From Dehalococcoidia bacterium (GTDB lineage: Bacteria; Chloroflexota; Dehalococcoidia; UBA6926), in contig JBJKVP010000008.1 of assembly GCA_045562535.1 (NCBI GenBank), positions 21,180 to 85,179 of the forward strand: a DNA stretch of 64,000 bases, written 5' to 3'. Shown piece after piece: positions 12,001 through 51,676 of the stretch. Position 1 is the first letter of the stretch, and each line of letters opens with the position of its first letter. The translations under genes were made by a program, and so were the position numbers. The notes below the pieces were generated by a model. That model worked only from the letters and a program-made list of their open reading frames with translations. It did no database searches and was not told the DNA's origin.

Positions 12001-13248
12001 TTATGGAAACCTCTTTATCCACTGGACACTTATATATGATCCGACGGCAAGTCCTAGGGCGTATACCCACCCATTCAATGCCAACGACGGAACGGCCGAG
12101 AAAAATGCCCCCAGTGTACATCCAAGGCCTAAGCCGGCCCCATAACCCATAATGGTCCCACCCACTATAGATTGTAGATATCTAACGGGTGATCTCGGTA
12201 TACGCAATTTAAATTCTCGAGCAAAAATTGCTGATGCAGCTGCACCAGCTACTATTCCTACATTTAAAAAGAACGTTTCAGTAAACCAACTACCGCCTTC
12301 TACTACTACGGCTGCACACGCACCTAAGCCATCCATACCTTTTAGATCAACTGGAGGGACGCCAAAAAGATTAACGAACGAAGTTGACCATCTTGATATT
12401 TCTCCAACAACTCCAAGAGGGTGGAACCTTATGAACAAAACGATATTAACAACAGCCAATATAATCCCGCCGACTATAGGGCTCCATTCTGTTCTAAAAA
12501 TGCTCTTCAAATTACCAGTTATTTCACCAATAGTACTCGTTGGAGTTTCTTCAACAGTTAACTTTTTTATCTCTGGCATGACAAAACCGGCAGTTACTCG
12601 TCTCTCTCTTGCTAAAGCAACGTAGAAGATCACTAAAAGTCCTACTGCCGTTACAAGCAATGCCCCTGAATATGTAATTTCCGCGGGAATCCATACTGCG
12701 ATTTCTTGGGAGATTAAATTATCCCACCACCAGTTCCATGTATTGTTAAGAAAGAATAACCCTACCATAACGCCCAATATGGCCACCCAGGAACCAACGT
12801 AGCCCTCGCCCATCCTGTAGAGTGAGCCAGAAACACAACCACCGGCTAAAACCATTCCAATACCAAATAAAATACCCGCGATTAATGTTGATAACCCTAC
12901 AGGAAGCACATGGGCATCACTCGGGAATGCACCAAACCCAGGGTTTGGCGACACCGTGCTCATTATCATTACAAATCCAACTGAAGATACGGCTAGCCCC
13001 ACCAATATGCCTTTTATCATTCTAGTCTGACCCAAAAGGAAAAAATCTCTAAACGCGGAAGTAAAACAAAACCTGCTGCGTTGTACTGTAACTCCAAATA
13101 CGACACCAACAACCCAATATATCGCTGCTATAGGTTGATCGGTCACAGATAGTATGACTACCAAGCCAGTTATAAAAATAATGGTTGTCCATACCCAAAA
13201 GGAGTAGTTATTGATTTTAAACCGATTTATATCAGTGATATTTTGCAT
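12001..13248 (-). CDS. yeeE: YeeE/YedE-family thiosulfate (sulfur/selenium compound) transporter
   Basis: 415 aa polytopic protein with duplicated halves carrying the conserved Cys motifs SRFCFTSAF, GGCVSGSLYR and LGLGCTLGAF. Confidence 0.85.
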   Translation of the reverse strand: MQNITDINRFKINNYSFWVWTTIIFITGLVVILSVTDQPIAAIYWVVGVVFGVTVQRSRFCFTSAFRDFFLLGQTRMIKGILVGLAVSSVGFVMIMSTVSPNPGFGAFPSDAHVLPVGLSTLIAGILFGIGMVLAGGCVSGSLYRMGEGYVGSWVAILGVMVGLFFLNNTWNWWWDNLISQEIAVWIPAEITYSGALLVTAVGLLVIFYVALARERRVTAGFVMPEIKKLTVEETPTSTIGEITGNLKSIFRTEWSPIVGGIILAVVNIVLFIRFHPLGVVGEISRWSTSFVNLFGVPPVDLKGMDGLGACAAVVVEGGSWFTETFFLNVGIVAGAAASAIFAREFKLRIPRSPVRYLQSIVGGTIMGYGAGLGLGCTLGAFFSAVPSLALNGWVYALGLAVGSYISVQWIKRFP

Positions 13249-13294
13249 GATCTTTCTTCTTTATTACACTCTGTCGCATCACAATTCATGTGTT

Positions 13295-13330
13295 AAAAAG
13301 GTACGCCCCCTAGCATAACATAGGGGGCGT
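13295..13330 (-). terminator. intra-operon intrinsic terminator between rhodanese and yeeE
   Basis: On the minus strand, a 10-bp stem ACGCCCCCTA/TAGGGGGCGT (13330-13321 / 13312-13303) is followed by ACCUUUUUAA. Confidence 0.6.
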
Positions 13331-13378
13331 AACCAGTTACCTAATATAAGGTAACTCTAGTGTGGCTAGCAATTTGAT

Positions 13379-14320
13379 TTAGGAATCAATAGGAGTATCT
13401 TCTCGATTTCCCCACTCAGTCCATGATCCATCGTACACAACGACGTTGTCATAACCTAAGAGGTCGCTCAGGACGAACCAACTATCTGTCGCTCTCACTG
13501 CTGTCTGACACAAAGTATAAATGTCTTGGTCAGTTCCTACCGCTGCAGCAGTATAAATCTTAGATAGCTCTTCAGCGCTCAAGAATGTCCCGTCTTCAGC
13601 ATGGTTGTTAGTCCACTCAACATGAACTGATTCAGGGATATGACCGCCTCTTTCTGCTCTGACATCACGGCCCGCATATTCATCGGCGCTTCTAGTATCT
13701 ACTACCAATTTAGTTGGATCTCCAATAGTTGCAAGGGTATCTTCCAAGGAAGCTACGAGACCAGGATTTGGCTCACCAGTAAATTCATATGAACTTGCCG
13801 ATATATTAGGTACATCGGTAGTAATTTCTTTACCTTCAGATTCCCAAAGAGCTATAGCACCATCCATCATTCTCGCATCTTCGTGACCATATACGTCAAG
13901 CGTCCATAGGAACCTTGTTGACCATAAATTTTTGATATGATCATATATGATAATAGTATCTGTAGACGATACACCCAAAGCGCTCAATTTAGCGGCTATA
14001 TCTCCCTCAGAAGGAATCACTCCTTTAACGCCATCTCTTTCTACTTGTAGTTCGGATTTATCATAGTTAATTGCCCCGGGAAGATGCCCTGCGGCATAGT
14101 CTTCACCTTTACGAATATCAATGATGACAACATTTTCATTATCCAAATTTTCATTAACCCAATCTGTGGAAACAAGTCGGGCAGTCGAAGCATATCCTCT
14201 ATCCTCAAGAGAAGCATCGGAAGCTACCTCGTTCCCTGCACATGCTCCAGTAATTAGCAATCCTAAAATTGCCAACCCGCCAAGGCTAATTTTTAAAACT
14301 TTACTCGAAAAAACCTTCAT
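13379..14320 (-). CDS. exported tandem-domain rhodanese (thiosulfate sulfurtransferase), lipoprotein
   Basis: Signal peptide with lipobox LITGAC, two rhodanese domains, catalytic loop CQTAVRA. Confidence 0.85.
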   Translation of the reverse strand: MKVFSSKVLKISLGGLAILGLLITGACAGNEVASDASLEDRGYASTARLVSTDWVNENLDNENVVIIDIRKGEDYAAGHLPGAINYDKSELQVERDGVKGVIPSEGDIAAKLSALGVSSTDTIIIYDHIKNLWSTRFLWTLDVYGHEDARMMDGAIALWESEGKEITTDVPNISASSYEFTGEPNPGLVASLEDTLATIGDPTKLVVDTRSADEYAGRDVRAERGGHIPESVHVEWTNNHAEDGTFLSAEELSKIYTAAAVGTDQDIYTLCQTAVRATDSWFVLSDLLGYDNVVVYDGSWTEWGNREDTPIDS

Positions 14321-16963: not shown

Positions 16964-17797
16964 TTGGAAATAATACCTGTAGAACAAAGAGGCTACGCTC
17001 ATCCTGAACTCATCGCAGAAACAAGCTGGCTTGCGACTCATATTTCTGACGAAGATATTCGAATAATAGATGCTCGCTCTTCCGAAGATTACGTCGAGTC
17101 TCATATACCCGGAGCCGTAAATCTTAGCGGTTTTCGAGGTATTCCAAGAACGGAGTCAGGAGAACTTGGAGATCCAGAAATATTTTCAGAAAAAGTAAGT
17201 AACTTGGGAATAGGTAACAACACAACCGTTATTGTGTATGACACTCCAAGCCAAATGATGGGGACAGTCGCTTGGGCCTTCCTGTACTACGGCCACACTA
17301 AGACCAAAATTCTGGACGGCGGCATAAACAAGTGGATATCAGAGGGTAACGCGATCTCAAAAACCGTTCCGGAATATCCGAAAGCATCATTTAAGGCAGA
17401 GTTAATAAGTTCAATTTACTGTTCTTTAAACGATGCTAAAAAGGGAGCAACAGATACCAACACCGTTTTTTGGGATACGCGCAGTCTGGGAGAGTATGAA
17501 GGTTCTACTTCAATAGGGGAAACACCTCCCGGTCGGATCCCTGGGGCAATCCATTTAGAATGGGTCGAATTATTTGATAAAGAAACAAAAACATTAAAGA
17601 GTGCCGACGAATTAAATCATTTGCTACTTTCTAATGGTATTACTCCAGAAAAAATAGTGAACAGTTATTGACAGGGTGGTGCGCGGGCGGCGCTCGCGAC
17701 GATAGTGCTAAAAATCTTGGGTTATGAAAATGCTAGAACATATGCGGGTTCATATGGTCAGTGGGCCAAACAACCTGACACACAAATAGAAACGTAA
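16964..17797 (+). CDS. tandem-domain rhodanese with in-frame TGA (17669-17671) at the catalytic Cys position; candidate selenocysteine rhodanese
   Basis: The frame continues 42 codons past the TGA to TAA 17795-17797. SY-[TGA]-QGGARAA aligns with LCQTAVRAT of the paralogue, and the downstream LGYEN..Y.GS..W..DT.I is conserved. Confidence 0.7.
17680..17701 (+). promoter_or_regulatory. candidate bacterial SECIS hairpin
   Basis: Stem 17682-17688 / 17692-17698 (6 Watson-Crick pairs plus 1 G-U) with a G-rich apical loop, starting 9-10 nt after the TGA. 21 of 24 nt are G/C in an AT-rich gene. Confidence 0.5.
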
Positions 17798-21835: not shown

Positions 21836-22960
21836 CTAATATTGCACTTGAGACCCTACAAAAGTCCGAGCCCATTCATCTGCAATGAATATATCATCAA
21901 TTGTTTCAACGCTAGTTGCCCTATGATTGCCTAAGGTCATTTCAATAATTCCCGGTATTTCTGTAAACCCTATCTGTTGAGATAAAAAGAGATCAACGGC
22001 AGCATCATTAGCAGCTGCAACCACGGCGGGGTATGTTTCCCCTAATTTAATAGCCTCCAAAGCCAGTCGGTAACTGGAAAATAGTTCTTCTTCTAAAGAC
22101 TCAAAAGAAACTTTCCCAAGTTCAAGTAAATTCACTCGGGTAACCTGGGCGTTTGCCCAGCGATCTGGATAAGCTAGTGCTAATTGCACAGGAACCCTCA
22201 TATCGGGATTAGATAATACGGCCTTAACAGAACCATCCTGAAACTCTGTCAAAGCTCTTACTACACTTTCCGGGTGGTATACAACTCTAATATTTTCAAC
22301 AGGTATATCATAGAGGTGATGGATAGCACTCAATTGGGTTGCCTTTGTGATCAAAGTAGATGAATCAATGCTTCTTCGCTGGCCTACTTTTCTTGAAGGG
22401 CGAACAAGAGCATTAAGGCCATGACTTCTTAAGCGCCTAGCATTGATTGTCCCCCAAGTTGATGTAATTGTTACTTGATCAACCGTTTCACGATCTTCTC
22501 CCCACAAGGTTTGCCAAACCCCTGCTGGTTCATCATCCAATGGGAAAATAGAAGCTCCTGTTTCTTGTGCAGTTTTTTTGAGTAAGGATCCCATAACAAA
22601 CAACAGATCAATGTTACCCAAAGCAACTCTTTTTCCAGCTCGGACAGCATCCCAGGTAGCCCTTAAGCTAGATTTCCCCACATGCGAAATGAAAACCATG
22701 TCTACTTCTTCAGATGTTACTAGTTCAGATGCTGATACAACTCGTACATCTCCTACAGAGGAATCCCATTCACCATGAGCTAGTGAGATCATATTAGGCC
22801 GATATTTTAAGACTTGCTCTTGTAATCTATCAACATTAGATCCCGTGCCTAAAGCTACGATATTGATTTCCTCTTCTAGAGAATCAATAACATCCAATAT
22901 TGTTCTTCCGAGTGAACCTGTAGAACCAATAATGGCGATGTTTAAAGGATCGGTTTTCAT
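21836..22960 (-). CDS. divergent DXR-family protein (paralogue of 1-deoxy-D-xylulose-5-phosphate reductoisomerase with an altered active site)
   Basis: Keeps IIGSTGSLG (NADPH) and HPES, but reads LDDEPAG for LDSEHSA, TSTWGTI for TASGGPF and ITKATQLSAI for MNKAFEVIEA, relative to the dxr at 50507-51676. Confidence 0.7.
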   Translation of the reverse strand: MKTDPLNIAIIGSTGSLGRTILDVIDSLEEEINIVALGTGSNVDRLQEQVLKYRPNMISLAHGEWDSSVGDVRVVSASELVTSEEVDMVFISHVGKSSLRATWDAVRAGKRVALGNIDLLFVMGSLLKKTAQETGASIFPLDDEPAGVWQTLWGEDRETVDQVTITSTWGTINARRLRSHGLNALVRPSRKVGQRRSIDSSTLITKATQLSAIHHLYDIPVENIRVVYHPESVVRALTEFQDGSVKAVLSNPDMRVPVQLALAYPDRWANAQVTRVNLLELGKVSFESLEEELFSSYRLALEAIKLGETYPAVVAAANDAAVDLFLSQQIGFTEIPGIIEMTLGNHRATSVETIDDIFIADEWARTFVGSQVQY

Positions 22961-25949: not shown

Positions 25950-25979
25950 AGTATATCTGTTTTTCTATCTGAATGTCAA
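25950..25979 (-). promoter_or_regulatory. sigma70-type promoter for sufB
   Basis: Minus strand: TTGACA (25979-25974), 18-nt spacer, TATACT (25955-25950). Confidence 0.5.
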
Positions 25980-26140
25980 TGTAACACGTATATATTGCCG
26001 TAAAATCCAGTATATCTCAAAAGAGGCCTACAAATTATTCCGATTAAAGAGTATATTCCGTATATAACAATTAATACTGATCTAATAATAGAAGTCTAGG
26101 CTTGAAGCCAACAAGGCTTGTAGTAGAAAGTAGGAAGATA

Positions 26141-26755
26141 TTGACGAATAAAATTAAACTTCCAGTAACAGTTTGGTACGATTATATTTGACCTTGGTGT
26201 TATATCGGCCAGGATCGGGTCGAACAACTAAAAAATGACTTTGATGTGGAAATCGATTATAGAGCCTTTTTCCTCAGGCCTGACCTACCACCAGAAGGTA
26301 TGCCTAGACCTGAAAAATACAACAATCCTAACAGCCCCGTTCAAAGGGCAGCCGAAGAAGCAGGTATATTGATGAACCGACCTGCAATAGTTCCATACAC
26401 TCGTCTTGCGCTTGAGGCAACTGAGGCGGCTAAATCTCTTGGACAAGGAGAGAAGTTTCATGAACTAGCCTACGCTTCCTACTGGGAGGATGGTACGGAC
26501 TTAGGAAAAATTGATAACCTAAAACCCATTGTAGAAGCCGCTGAATTAGACTGGGACACTGTAAAACAACATATAGAACAGCGAACCTTCAAAGAAGATG
26601 TTGAAAAGCAATATGAAGAGGCACTCAAAGTAGGAGTGACAGGCATTCCAGCTTATGTCATAGGAAACTATTTCTTTATGGGAGCTCAGCCTTATGAGGT
26701 ATTCAAACAAGTTGCTGAAAAAGCCCTAAAACACATGGAAGAGAATCAAGATTAG
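26141..26755 (+). CDS. DsbA/FrnE-like dithiol oxidoreductase with in-frame TGA (26189-26191) at the first Cys of CPWC; candidate selenoprotein
   Basis: TTG 26141 follows an AGGAAG SD. Translation reads MTNKIKLPVTVWYDYI-[TGA]-PWCYIGQDRVEQL, continuous with the listed ORF 26246-26755. FrnE-type motif W.D..CPWCYIG. Confidence 0.65.
26205..26223 (+). promoter_or_regulatory. candidate SECIS hairpin of the FrnE-like gene
   Basis: UCGGCC (26205-26210) pairs with GGUCGA (26218-26223); 7-nt loop AGGAUCG. The stem starts 14 nt after the TGA. Confidence 0.35.
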
Positions 26756-50506: not shown

Positions 50507-51676
50507 TTATTTGTTGTTCCTTACATAATTTTTTCTAATTTCGTTTCTAGCCCAGGCATCAGCTTCTAAAATATCTTCAAGAGATGGTTTAGAAATTGGA
50601 CGATGTTTTTCCAGAGTCGCTCTGATTAGATCCGGTATGCCAGAAAATGGGACGTCTCCTCCCAAAAAGAGTCTGACAGCTTCTTCATCGGCTGCGTTAA
50701 GAACCGCAGGGTAGGTTTGTTTCGCCTTTCCGGCTTCTAACCCAATGTTAAAACAGGGAAAAACCTCTTCATCCAAAGCCTCAAAAGTAAGCGAAGGCAT
50801 CTCATGAATTTCTTTTGAAGGGAAGCTAGGGGATCGAGGAATCCTATTGGGGTACCCCAACGCATATTGGATCGGCAGGCGCATATCTGGCATGGATAAC
50901 TGGGCTTTAAGGGTACCATCGATAAATTCCACCATCGAATGAATAATACTTTCTGGATGCACTAGGACGTCTATATCTGAATATTCGATACCAAAAAGCC
51001 AATGAGCTTCGATTACTTCAAAAGCTTTGTTCATAAGAGTAGCAGAATCTATCGTCACTTTAGAGCCCATTTTCCATGTCGGATGATTCAACGCAAGTTC
51101 AGGCGTAACACCTAAAATCGATGAAGCATTCATTCCTCTAAAAGGTCCTCCAGACGCTGTAAGAATGAGCTTGCTTAACCTTTTACCGAGTGGATCCTCA
51201 CCGCGAAGACTTTGCCATATAGCACTATGCTCGCTATCAAGGGGGAGTAGTCTATCAAATGGAAAACTTATTGGGGGTTTAATAATATCTCCTGCTACAA
51301 CCAATACCTCTTTGCTAGCCAGTGCAACTGTTTTATTATGATGTAGGGCAGTTAATGTCGGTTGTAAAGCTGCTAAACCTGGGATCGCTATTACAACAAT
51401 ATCAACATCGGAATCAGAAACAATTGAATCTATATCAACCATTTCTAGTTCAAAATCATAATTTGAAAGTCCAATAGATCCTTGGGATAGGCTCACGCTG
51501 CGTGGTCGGAATTCATGCACTTGAGAAATGAAAAGTTCCGACATCTTCCTAGCAGCAAGACCGGTTATTGAAAACATCTCTGGATTATCTCTAACTATAG
51601 CTAAAGTTTGGGTCCCTATCGATCCAGTTGAACCGAGTATGGCGATATTTTTTTTTATACCCACAATAGTACCCAA
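50507..51676 (-). CDS. dxr: 1-deoxy-D-xylulose-5-phosphate reductoisomerase (canonical copy)
   Basis: GSTGSIG, LDSEHSAIWQ, ASGGPF, HPTWKMG, NKAFEVIEA and HPES motifs are all intact. Confidence 0.95.
   Translation of the reverse strand: MGTIVGIKKNIAILGSTGSIGTQTLAIVRDNPEMFSITGLAARKMSELFISQVHEFRPRSVSLSQGSIGLSNYDFELEMVDIDSIVSDSDVDIVVIAIPGLAALQPTLTALHHNKTVALASKEVLVVAGDIIKPPISFPFDRLLPLDSEHSAIWQSLRGEDPLGKRLSKLILTASGGPFRGMNASSILGVTPELALNHPTWKMGSKVTIDSATLMNKAFEVIEAHWLFGIEYSDIDVLVHPESIIHSMVEFIDGTLKAQLSMPDMRLPIQYALGYPNRIPRSPSFPSKEIHEMPSLTFEALDEEVFPCFNIGLEAGKAKQTYPAVLNAADEEAVRLFLGGDVPFSGIPDLIRATLEKHRPISKPSLEDILEADAWARNEIRKNYVRNNK

Follow-up and report, generated by a model that had tools for sequence, protein, structure and literature searches.

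A DsbA-like gene of a marine SAR202-related Dehalococcoidia bacterium, annotated as a 169-residue fragment, very probably encodes a UxxC selenoprotein

Introduction

DsbA-like proteins of COG2761 with a UxxC motif were among the 15 new selenoprotein families described from the Sargasso Sea in 2005 (Zhang, Fomenko & Gladyshev, PMC1088965); that study reported nine such sequences, figured their SECIS elements and found Cys homologues to be widespread. A survey in 2016 counted the DsbA-like selenoprotein in 41 organisms (PMC5029168), and a review of 2026 carries it as 'DsbA-like protein form 1, PF01323, UxxC' (PMC13188914). The rhodanese-related sulfurtransferases of COG2897, with a UxxG motif, stand on the same selenoprotein lists (PMC1088965, PMC13188914).

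In this study, we analysed a 64-kb stretch of DNA, referred to throughout as the window, which has about 40% GC and holds housekeeping genes including sufBD, trkHA, dxr, eno, gap, ligA, proS, rpsB and tsf. We conclude that the frame at 26141-26755 is very probably a DsbA-family thiol-disulfide oxidoreductase of the FrnE/COG2761 type, belonging to a marine SAR202-related Dehalococcoidia bacterium, in which the UGA at codon 17 is decoded as selenocysteine (Sec).

Results

The reading frame extends upstream through an in-frame TGA

An earlier sequence-only reading of this DNA had noticed that the ORF listed from the GTG at 26246 (26246-26755, 169 aa) stays open in the same frame upstream to a TTG at 26141, interrupted by a single TGA, and that the TTG is preceded by an AGGAAG Shine-Dalgarno sequence. 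Each of these points was borne out. Upstream of 26246 the frame reads TTG(26141) TNKIKLPVTVWYDYI - TGA(26189-26191) - PWCYIGQDRVEQLKNDFD and is continuous with the listed ORF; the whole frame has 204 codons, running from the TTG start to a TAG stop at 26753-26755, with the presumptive Sec at codon 17. The features of the gene are as follows.

26141-26755, forward strand: full gene of the putative DsbA/FrnE-like selenoprotein (translation; Pfam DSBA match at residues 9-190; start matching that of homologues)
26246-26755, forward strand: 169-residue ORF of the public gene calls, with a GTG start and without the active site (ORF listing)
26189-26191, forward strand: in-frame TGA, read as Sec at residue 17 (homologue codons; alignment with Cys22 of the FrnE CPWC motif; six assemblies)
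26189-26200, forward strand: redox motif U-P-W-C, TGA CCT TGG TGT (translation; alignments with FrnE and homologues)
26132-26137, forward strand: Shine-Dalgarno-like AGGAAG, 3 nt before the TTG (sequence reading; putative function)
26633-26650, forward strand: GVTGIP segment, residues 165-170 (conserved in homologue alignment A1; aligned with GITGVP of FrnE)

The spacing between AGGAAG and the TTG is short, at only 3 nt, and the position of the TTG coincides with a TTG in the closest relative (L007) and with the ATG starts of other homologues. Cys20, the second residue of the redox pair, is the sole cysteine of the 204-residue protein, which ends in …KHMEENQD. Residues G165 and P170 of GVTGIP are invariant, and G168 is nearly so; by comparison with DsbA-family structures in general, this segment would be the cis-proline loop that lies opposite the redox motif in the thioredoxin fold. 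By inspection there is no signal peptide, the N-terminus MTNKIKLPVTVWYDY leading directly into the first beta-strand without a hydrophobic leader. A periplasmic DsbA of the E. coli type was rejected on the same inspection, as the N-terminal export signal peptide is absent.

The read-through protein is a complete DsbA-family domain

With the TGA read as Cys in the domain and structure searches, residues 9-190 of the read-through protein match Pfam DSBA (PF01323) with E = 1.4e-33 and 116.7 bits against a cut-off of 25.6, and the match spans profile positions 2-188 of 191. Since it begins at residue 9, the part upstream of the TGA belongs to the domain. The best solved relative is FrnE (5cnw_A, E = 2.6e-16, residues 3-187), and the TGA falls on the first Cys of CPWCYIG in that structure, as it does on the CPWC of the database entries P0010, P0011, P0022, P0038 and P0039. 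The proposal of the sequence-only reading that the TGA takes the place of the nucleophilic Cys of a FrnE-type CPWC motif is thus upheld by the alignments both with 5cnw and with Cys homologues. A second candidate family, the Rcas_1661 (seleno)lipoprotein (NF041057), was discarded: the match reaches 34 bits against a cut-off of 190 and covers residues 90-194 only, and the protein has no lipoprotein signal.

The TGA is conserved across homologues and alternates with Cys codons

All 79 loci obtained by scanning species-representative genomes carry the label Dehalococcoidia, Chloroflexota or SAR202; 78 of them contain the motif, and overall identity to the window protein is 41-90%. The motif codon is TGA in 76 of these 78 species-level genomes and TGC in the other two. 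Its flanks are strongly conserved across the 78 loci, as (I/V)PVTVWYDY(I/V)-U-PWCY(I/V)G, and homologues do not begin downstream of the motif: in nearly all 78 genomes a start codon, mostly ATG, lies 16-22 codons upstream of the TGA. In metagenomes, a scan seeded with Cys forms recovered 28 TGA, 32 TGC and 19 TGT loci, that is, 28 TGA against 51 TGC/TGT, with the TGA pairing with the first Cys of CPWC. Such a split is what is classically seen between Sec and Cys homologues.

TGA is only one base away from TGC or TGT, and a sequencing or assembly error could in principle have created it. That explanation has next to no chance of being correct, given that the codon is common to six independent assemblies of the same strain (from ENA, NCBI and Logan) and to the 76 genomes.

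A pseudogene or a truncated gene would be the more conventional interpretation, the TGA being a true stop and the locus yielding either nothing functional or just the 169-residue C-terminal fragment from the GTG at 26246. Every public gene call does treat the gene as the 169-residue product, which public data carry in identical form on six contigs, derived from marine metagenomes and one MAG (GCA_964403715.1), and TGA is an ordinary stop elsewhere in the window, where it ends 12 of 56 long ORFs. The latter count rules out a genome-wide reassignment of TGA. The fragment, however, would lack the whole active site, as the sequence-only reading had argued, and also strand beta-1 of the Pfam domain; the TGA has been kept in 76 of 78 species at 41-90% protein identity, together with the start and 16-20 upstream codons; and a selected structured element, found in TGA forms only, lies directly downstream (see below). 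Because the TGA, its flanks and the starts are conserved and TGA is a normal stop elsewhere, we regard the pseudogene and short-protein readings as effectively refuted, and give them hardly any probability. Most database homologues are trimmed at the same end, beginning just past the motif, and the few full-length ones carry CPWC; the presence of TGA in most homologue loci explains this division into short and full-length proteins.

One database protein, P0014, shows Trp at the Sec site (WYDYIWPWC). The DNA of the corresponding ENA contig, c_000001179853 (L166), has TGA at 161-163, and translation of L166 under table 11 does not yield the entry; evidently table 4 had been applied to this short contig during gene calling, and the Trp was dismissed as an artefact. 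Such a table 4 artefact can hide selenoproteins as seemingly full-length Trp variants.

A hairpin downstream of the TGA is under selection in TGA forms

The sequence-only reading had also reported a 6-bp hairpin with the loop AGGAUCG shortly after the TGA, and this is present.

26205-26223, forward strand: SECIS-like hairpin, 6-bp stem UCGGCC/GGUCGA, loop AGGAUCG at 26211-26217 (covariation; codon resampling)

The hairpin starts 13 nt past the TGA, and the distance from the UGA to the apical loop is 19 nt. For this distance the bSECISearch model allows 16-37 nt.

Covariation was assessed in an ungapped alignment (A2) of 60 distinct TGA-containing homologues. RNAalifold, applied to these 60, returned a 3-bp alternative in place of the hairpin, owing to a clade whose pairing is shifted in register; the helix was therefore named explicitly and its pairs counted. 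In the named helix, 78.7% of cells are standard pairs, and helices slid to other registers give far fewer. Column pair 24/34 is compensatory (CG 27, UA 8, AU 6), its changes combining the wobble base of a Gly codon with the first base of a Val, Ile or Leu codon, and column pair 19/39 varies between AU (15) and GC (8). The 17 unpaired cells at 24/34 arise because one clade (GGC CUG GCC AGG CUC) needs the shifted register. None of 500 column shuffles reached the observed covariation score.

Codon choice in the hairpin points the same way. At 26212 the loop G occupies a synonymous site, the wobble base of a CAG codon, and is invariant in 60 of 60 homologues, and 73% of Gln codons in this genome are CAA. 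The stem likewise consists of codons that this genome seldom uses (ATC 0.19, GGC 0.16, CGG 0.07, GTC 0.13). We resampled synonymous codons at positions +4 to +13 after the UGA, holding the protein fixed and drawing codons from each locus's own usage. The window sequence gave z = -4.9, and 51 distinct TGA sequences from genomes gave a mean z of -2.2, with p <= 0.05 individually in 63%, whereas z was +1.25 and -0.08 for the two TGC genomes. In the independent metagenome set, the TGA forms (n = 20 distinct) had a mean z of -2.67, with 85% at p <= 0.05, against means of -0.25 for TGT (n = 16) and -0.06 for TGC forms (n = 28). The excess stability of the hairpin is under selection in TGA forms only, and not in Cys forms as a group. 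Covariation and codon resampling together describe a hairpin that is conserved in register, SECIS-like and specific to TGA forms. TGA members of a distant clade (…SDYIUPWCYVGQGVVEKL…) have the same UCGGCC…GGUCGA stem at an equal distance from the UGA, with a GGGUG loop.

The signal emerges only when the protein is held fixed and codons are resampled: single-sequence folds of the 62-101 nt downstream of each TGA did not surpass shuffles that preserve dinucleotides (z = 0.2 to 0.6). Rfam returned neither a SECIS family nor tRNA-Sec, whether for the window at gathering thresholds or for the two TGA regions at E <= 10. The contrast in stability between Sec and Cys forms, with z near -2.5 against z near 0, offers a simple and reusable test for bacterial SECIS elements that lie within ORFs.

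Among the Cys forms, one metagenome contig (Ga0209039_10001258, L115) has TGT as its motif codon. The full hairpin is kept (z = -4.0) and matches that of its TGA relatives exactly, which suggests a recent conversion from Sec to Cys with a fossil SECIS.

A second gene in the window pairs TGA with a catalytic Cys

The sequence-only reading had drawn attention to another TGA at a redox Cys in the same window and had argued that two such cases strengthen the case for Sec usage. The second case is a rhodanese, which pairs with Cys homologues.

16964-17797, forward strand: rhodanese-type sulfurtransferase with TGA at 17669-17671 in the place of the catalytic Cys, Y-U-QGGAR (homologue comparison)
about 17680-17701, forward strand: GC-rich hairpin after the rhodanese TGA, a 7-bp GC stem with a GGC loop (fold)

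The TGA lies in the context NSY-U-QGGARAA, and the frame reads NSY-U-QGGARAALATIV…. Among the matches listed, the two closest homologues (91% and 71% identity) end at residue 235, the position of the TGA, and the sole contig with the 71%-identical homologue itself stops at its TGA. Of the 120 listed matches, many are full-length (about 280 aa) and cover 97-100% of the read-through rhodanese; all six of the full-length homologues that were read have YC[QN]GGAR, and the 41 residues past the TGA closely resemble the C-terminus of one Cys form, P0122. In the codons that follow the TGA, GC reaches 75%, where codon usage predicts 57% (p = 0.0007) and the genome has 40%, and the hairpin is absent from the one Cys-form homologue whose DNA was read. 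By its motif and homologues, the rhodanese fits the known selenoprotein family COG2897, UxxG. That two independent Sec/Cys pairs occur within 64 kb strengthens the case that this organism decodes UGA as Sec.

A membrane protein of the YeeE/YedE-like 'Sulphur transport' type (PF04143; 12001-13248, reverse strand) adjoins a second, tandem rhodanese of the Cys type (13379-14320, reverse strand), some 3 kb away from the TGA-containing rhodanese. The YeeE-like gene and the rhodaneses may form a cluster for sulfur or selenium handling.

Sec machinery

Searches of the 64-kb window, of the 10 kb beyond each of its ends and of the homologue loci examined turned up no selA, selB, selD or tRNA-Sec; ARAGORN detected no tRNA-Sec in the window and loci L001-L085, and Pfam annotation of about 40 window ORFs gave no SelA, SelB or SelD. 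The sel genes and tRNA-Sec are thus absent from the stretch searched. Sec decoding in this particular genome is inferred, and its machinery is presumed to be present by analogy with related MAGs in the literature. Indirect support comes from BSepDB, which covers species with SelA, SelB and SelD; two Dehalococcoidia MAGs rank in its top ten by number of selenoprotein genes, with 49 and 46 (PMC13326102).

These searches bear on the possibility that the UGA is translated as a residue other than Sec, whether Cys, Trp or Gly, through a suppressor, a SelB-like system or near-cognate read-through. The lack of Sec machinery in the regions searched speaks for such an explanation, and the Trp of P0014 could be taken to favour it. 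Against this, the Trp is a gene-caller artefact and the underlying DNA is TGA; the codon stands for the nucleophilic Cys of CxxC, where Sec is typically found; the hairpin resembles bacterial SECIS elements in its position and its G-containing loop (PMC1088965); and the catalogued Sec users include related Dehalococcoidia MAGs, with up to 49 selenoproteins. We consider translation as another residue very unlikely.

Gene neighbourhood

The order sufB (divergent)-dsbA-trkH occurs in the close clade only, at 24 of 78 loci, and is kept in all 24 close-clade genomes; around the 54 distant loci no neighbouring gene recurs in more than 18. The neighbourhood gives no clue to function. The intergenic region between sufB and dsbA contains a near-consensus sigma-70-like promoter (TTGACA, 18 nt, TATACT; 11 of 12 matches) at 25950-25979 on the reverse strand, facing sufB; nothing comparable was detected for the selenoprotein gene.

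Two further observations concern other genes. DXP reductoisomerase domains occur in two genes of the window (21836-22960 and 50507-51676, both on the reverse strand), one beside sufBD and the other within a classical uppS-cdsA-dxr-rseP-ispG cluster. About 1.2-2 kb past the right end of the window, on one contig (CAYOHH010000008.1, L167), an ornithine cyclodeaminase/mu-crystallin gene (13076-14026, reverse strand) contains one in-frame TGA at 13718-13720, in the context GALRT-TGA-AASAVASKY. Homologues presumably have Gly or Ala at this position, and the TGA is one base from GGA; Sec is less likely here than an error or nonsense mutation.

Discussion

The selenoprotein interpretation put forward from the sequence alone gains support from the Sec/Cys pattern, the conserved flanks, the hairpin specific to TGA forms and the second Sec/Cys pair. 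Our model proposes that, when the ribosome reaches the UGA at codon 17, the hairpin at 26205-26223, 13 nt downstream and with a G in its apical loop, would act as a bacterial SECIS, recruiting SelB-GTP-Sec-tRNA(Sec) so that Sec would be inserted in place of termination. The resulting U17-P-W-C20 centre, at the position of CPWC in FrnE, could then cycle U17 and C20 between a selenenylsulfide and a selenol/thiol couple, which would face the conserved GVTGIP loop. The enzyme might, as FrnE does, reduce, oxidise or isomerise disulfides in substrate proteins, and its N-terminus, which has no hydrophobic segment, suggests that it does so in the cytoplasm.

Two variants of this model can be envisaged. 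The UGA and hairpin might together insert a residue other than Sec (for example Cys, through a SelB-like factor), or a Sec-containing FrnE might belong to a dedicated sulfur/selenium trafficking module in which it would serve Fe-S assembly together with the divergent sufBD, the rhodanese selenoprotein and the YeeE-like gene. Even taken jointly, we judge these variants very unlikely, and favour a Sec-containing oxidoreductase of the FrnE/COG2761 type.

The main value of this finding lies in annotation, given that the gene is public as a 169-residue fragment without its active site and that most of its relatives are shortened in the same way. The corrected reading would restore a functional redox enzyme, to judge from the encoded motif and domain, and marks the organism as a selenium user, in keeping with the selenoproteomes reported for marine Dehalococcoidia, some of which are among the largest in bacteria. 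The gene opens no new biological question.

Comparison with known systems places the protein near several families. It shares with FrnE of Deinococcus radiodurans (5cnw), a DsbA-family disulfide oxidoreductase of the cytoplasm, the (C/U)PWCYIG motif, the GxTG(I/V)P loop and the lack of a signal peptide, but FrnE has Cys where the window protein has Sec. The solved FrnE chain has 260 aa and a C-terminal tail, whereas the window protein, at 204 aa, ends soon after the domain and contains one Cys. The FrnE tail reportedly carries a second CxxxxC motif, which is absent from the window protein with its single C20. Lacking this longer tail, the protein would be classed as FrnE-like and strictly not as a FrnE orthologue. 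With Rcas_1661 (NF041057) it has in common a thioredoxin-fold (seleno)protein associated with Chloroflexota, and the match is weak and partial. The COG2897 UxxG rhodaneses, to which the Y-U-QGGAR of the window rhodanese relates, are a family separate from the DsbA-like protein, and the rhodanese is relevant here only as independent evidence that the organism reads UGA as Sec.

The closest system is the DsbA-like COG2761 UxxC selenoprotein family, and the gene carries every testable defining feature of it. The two share the Pfam domain, UxxC with Sec at the first Cys, a marine metagenomic origin, an adjacent downstream SECIS with a G in the apical loop, and widespread Cys homologues. Nothing substantive differs; with 76 of 78 species carrying it, the Sec form has come close to fixation in the lineage of the window. 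The 2005 description already covered the family together with its UxxC motif and SECIS, and the window gene is a mis-annotated member of this known selenoprotein family.
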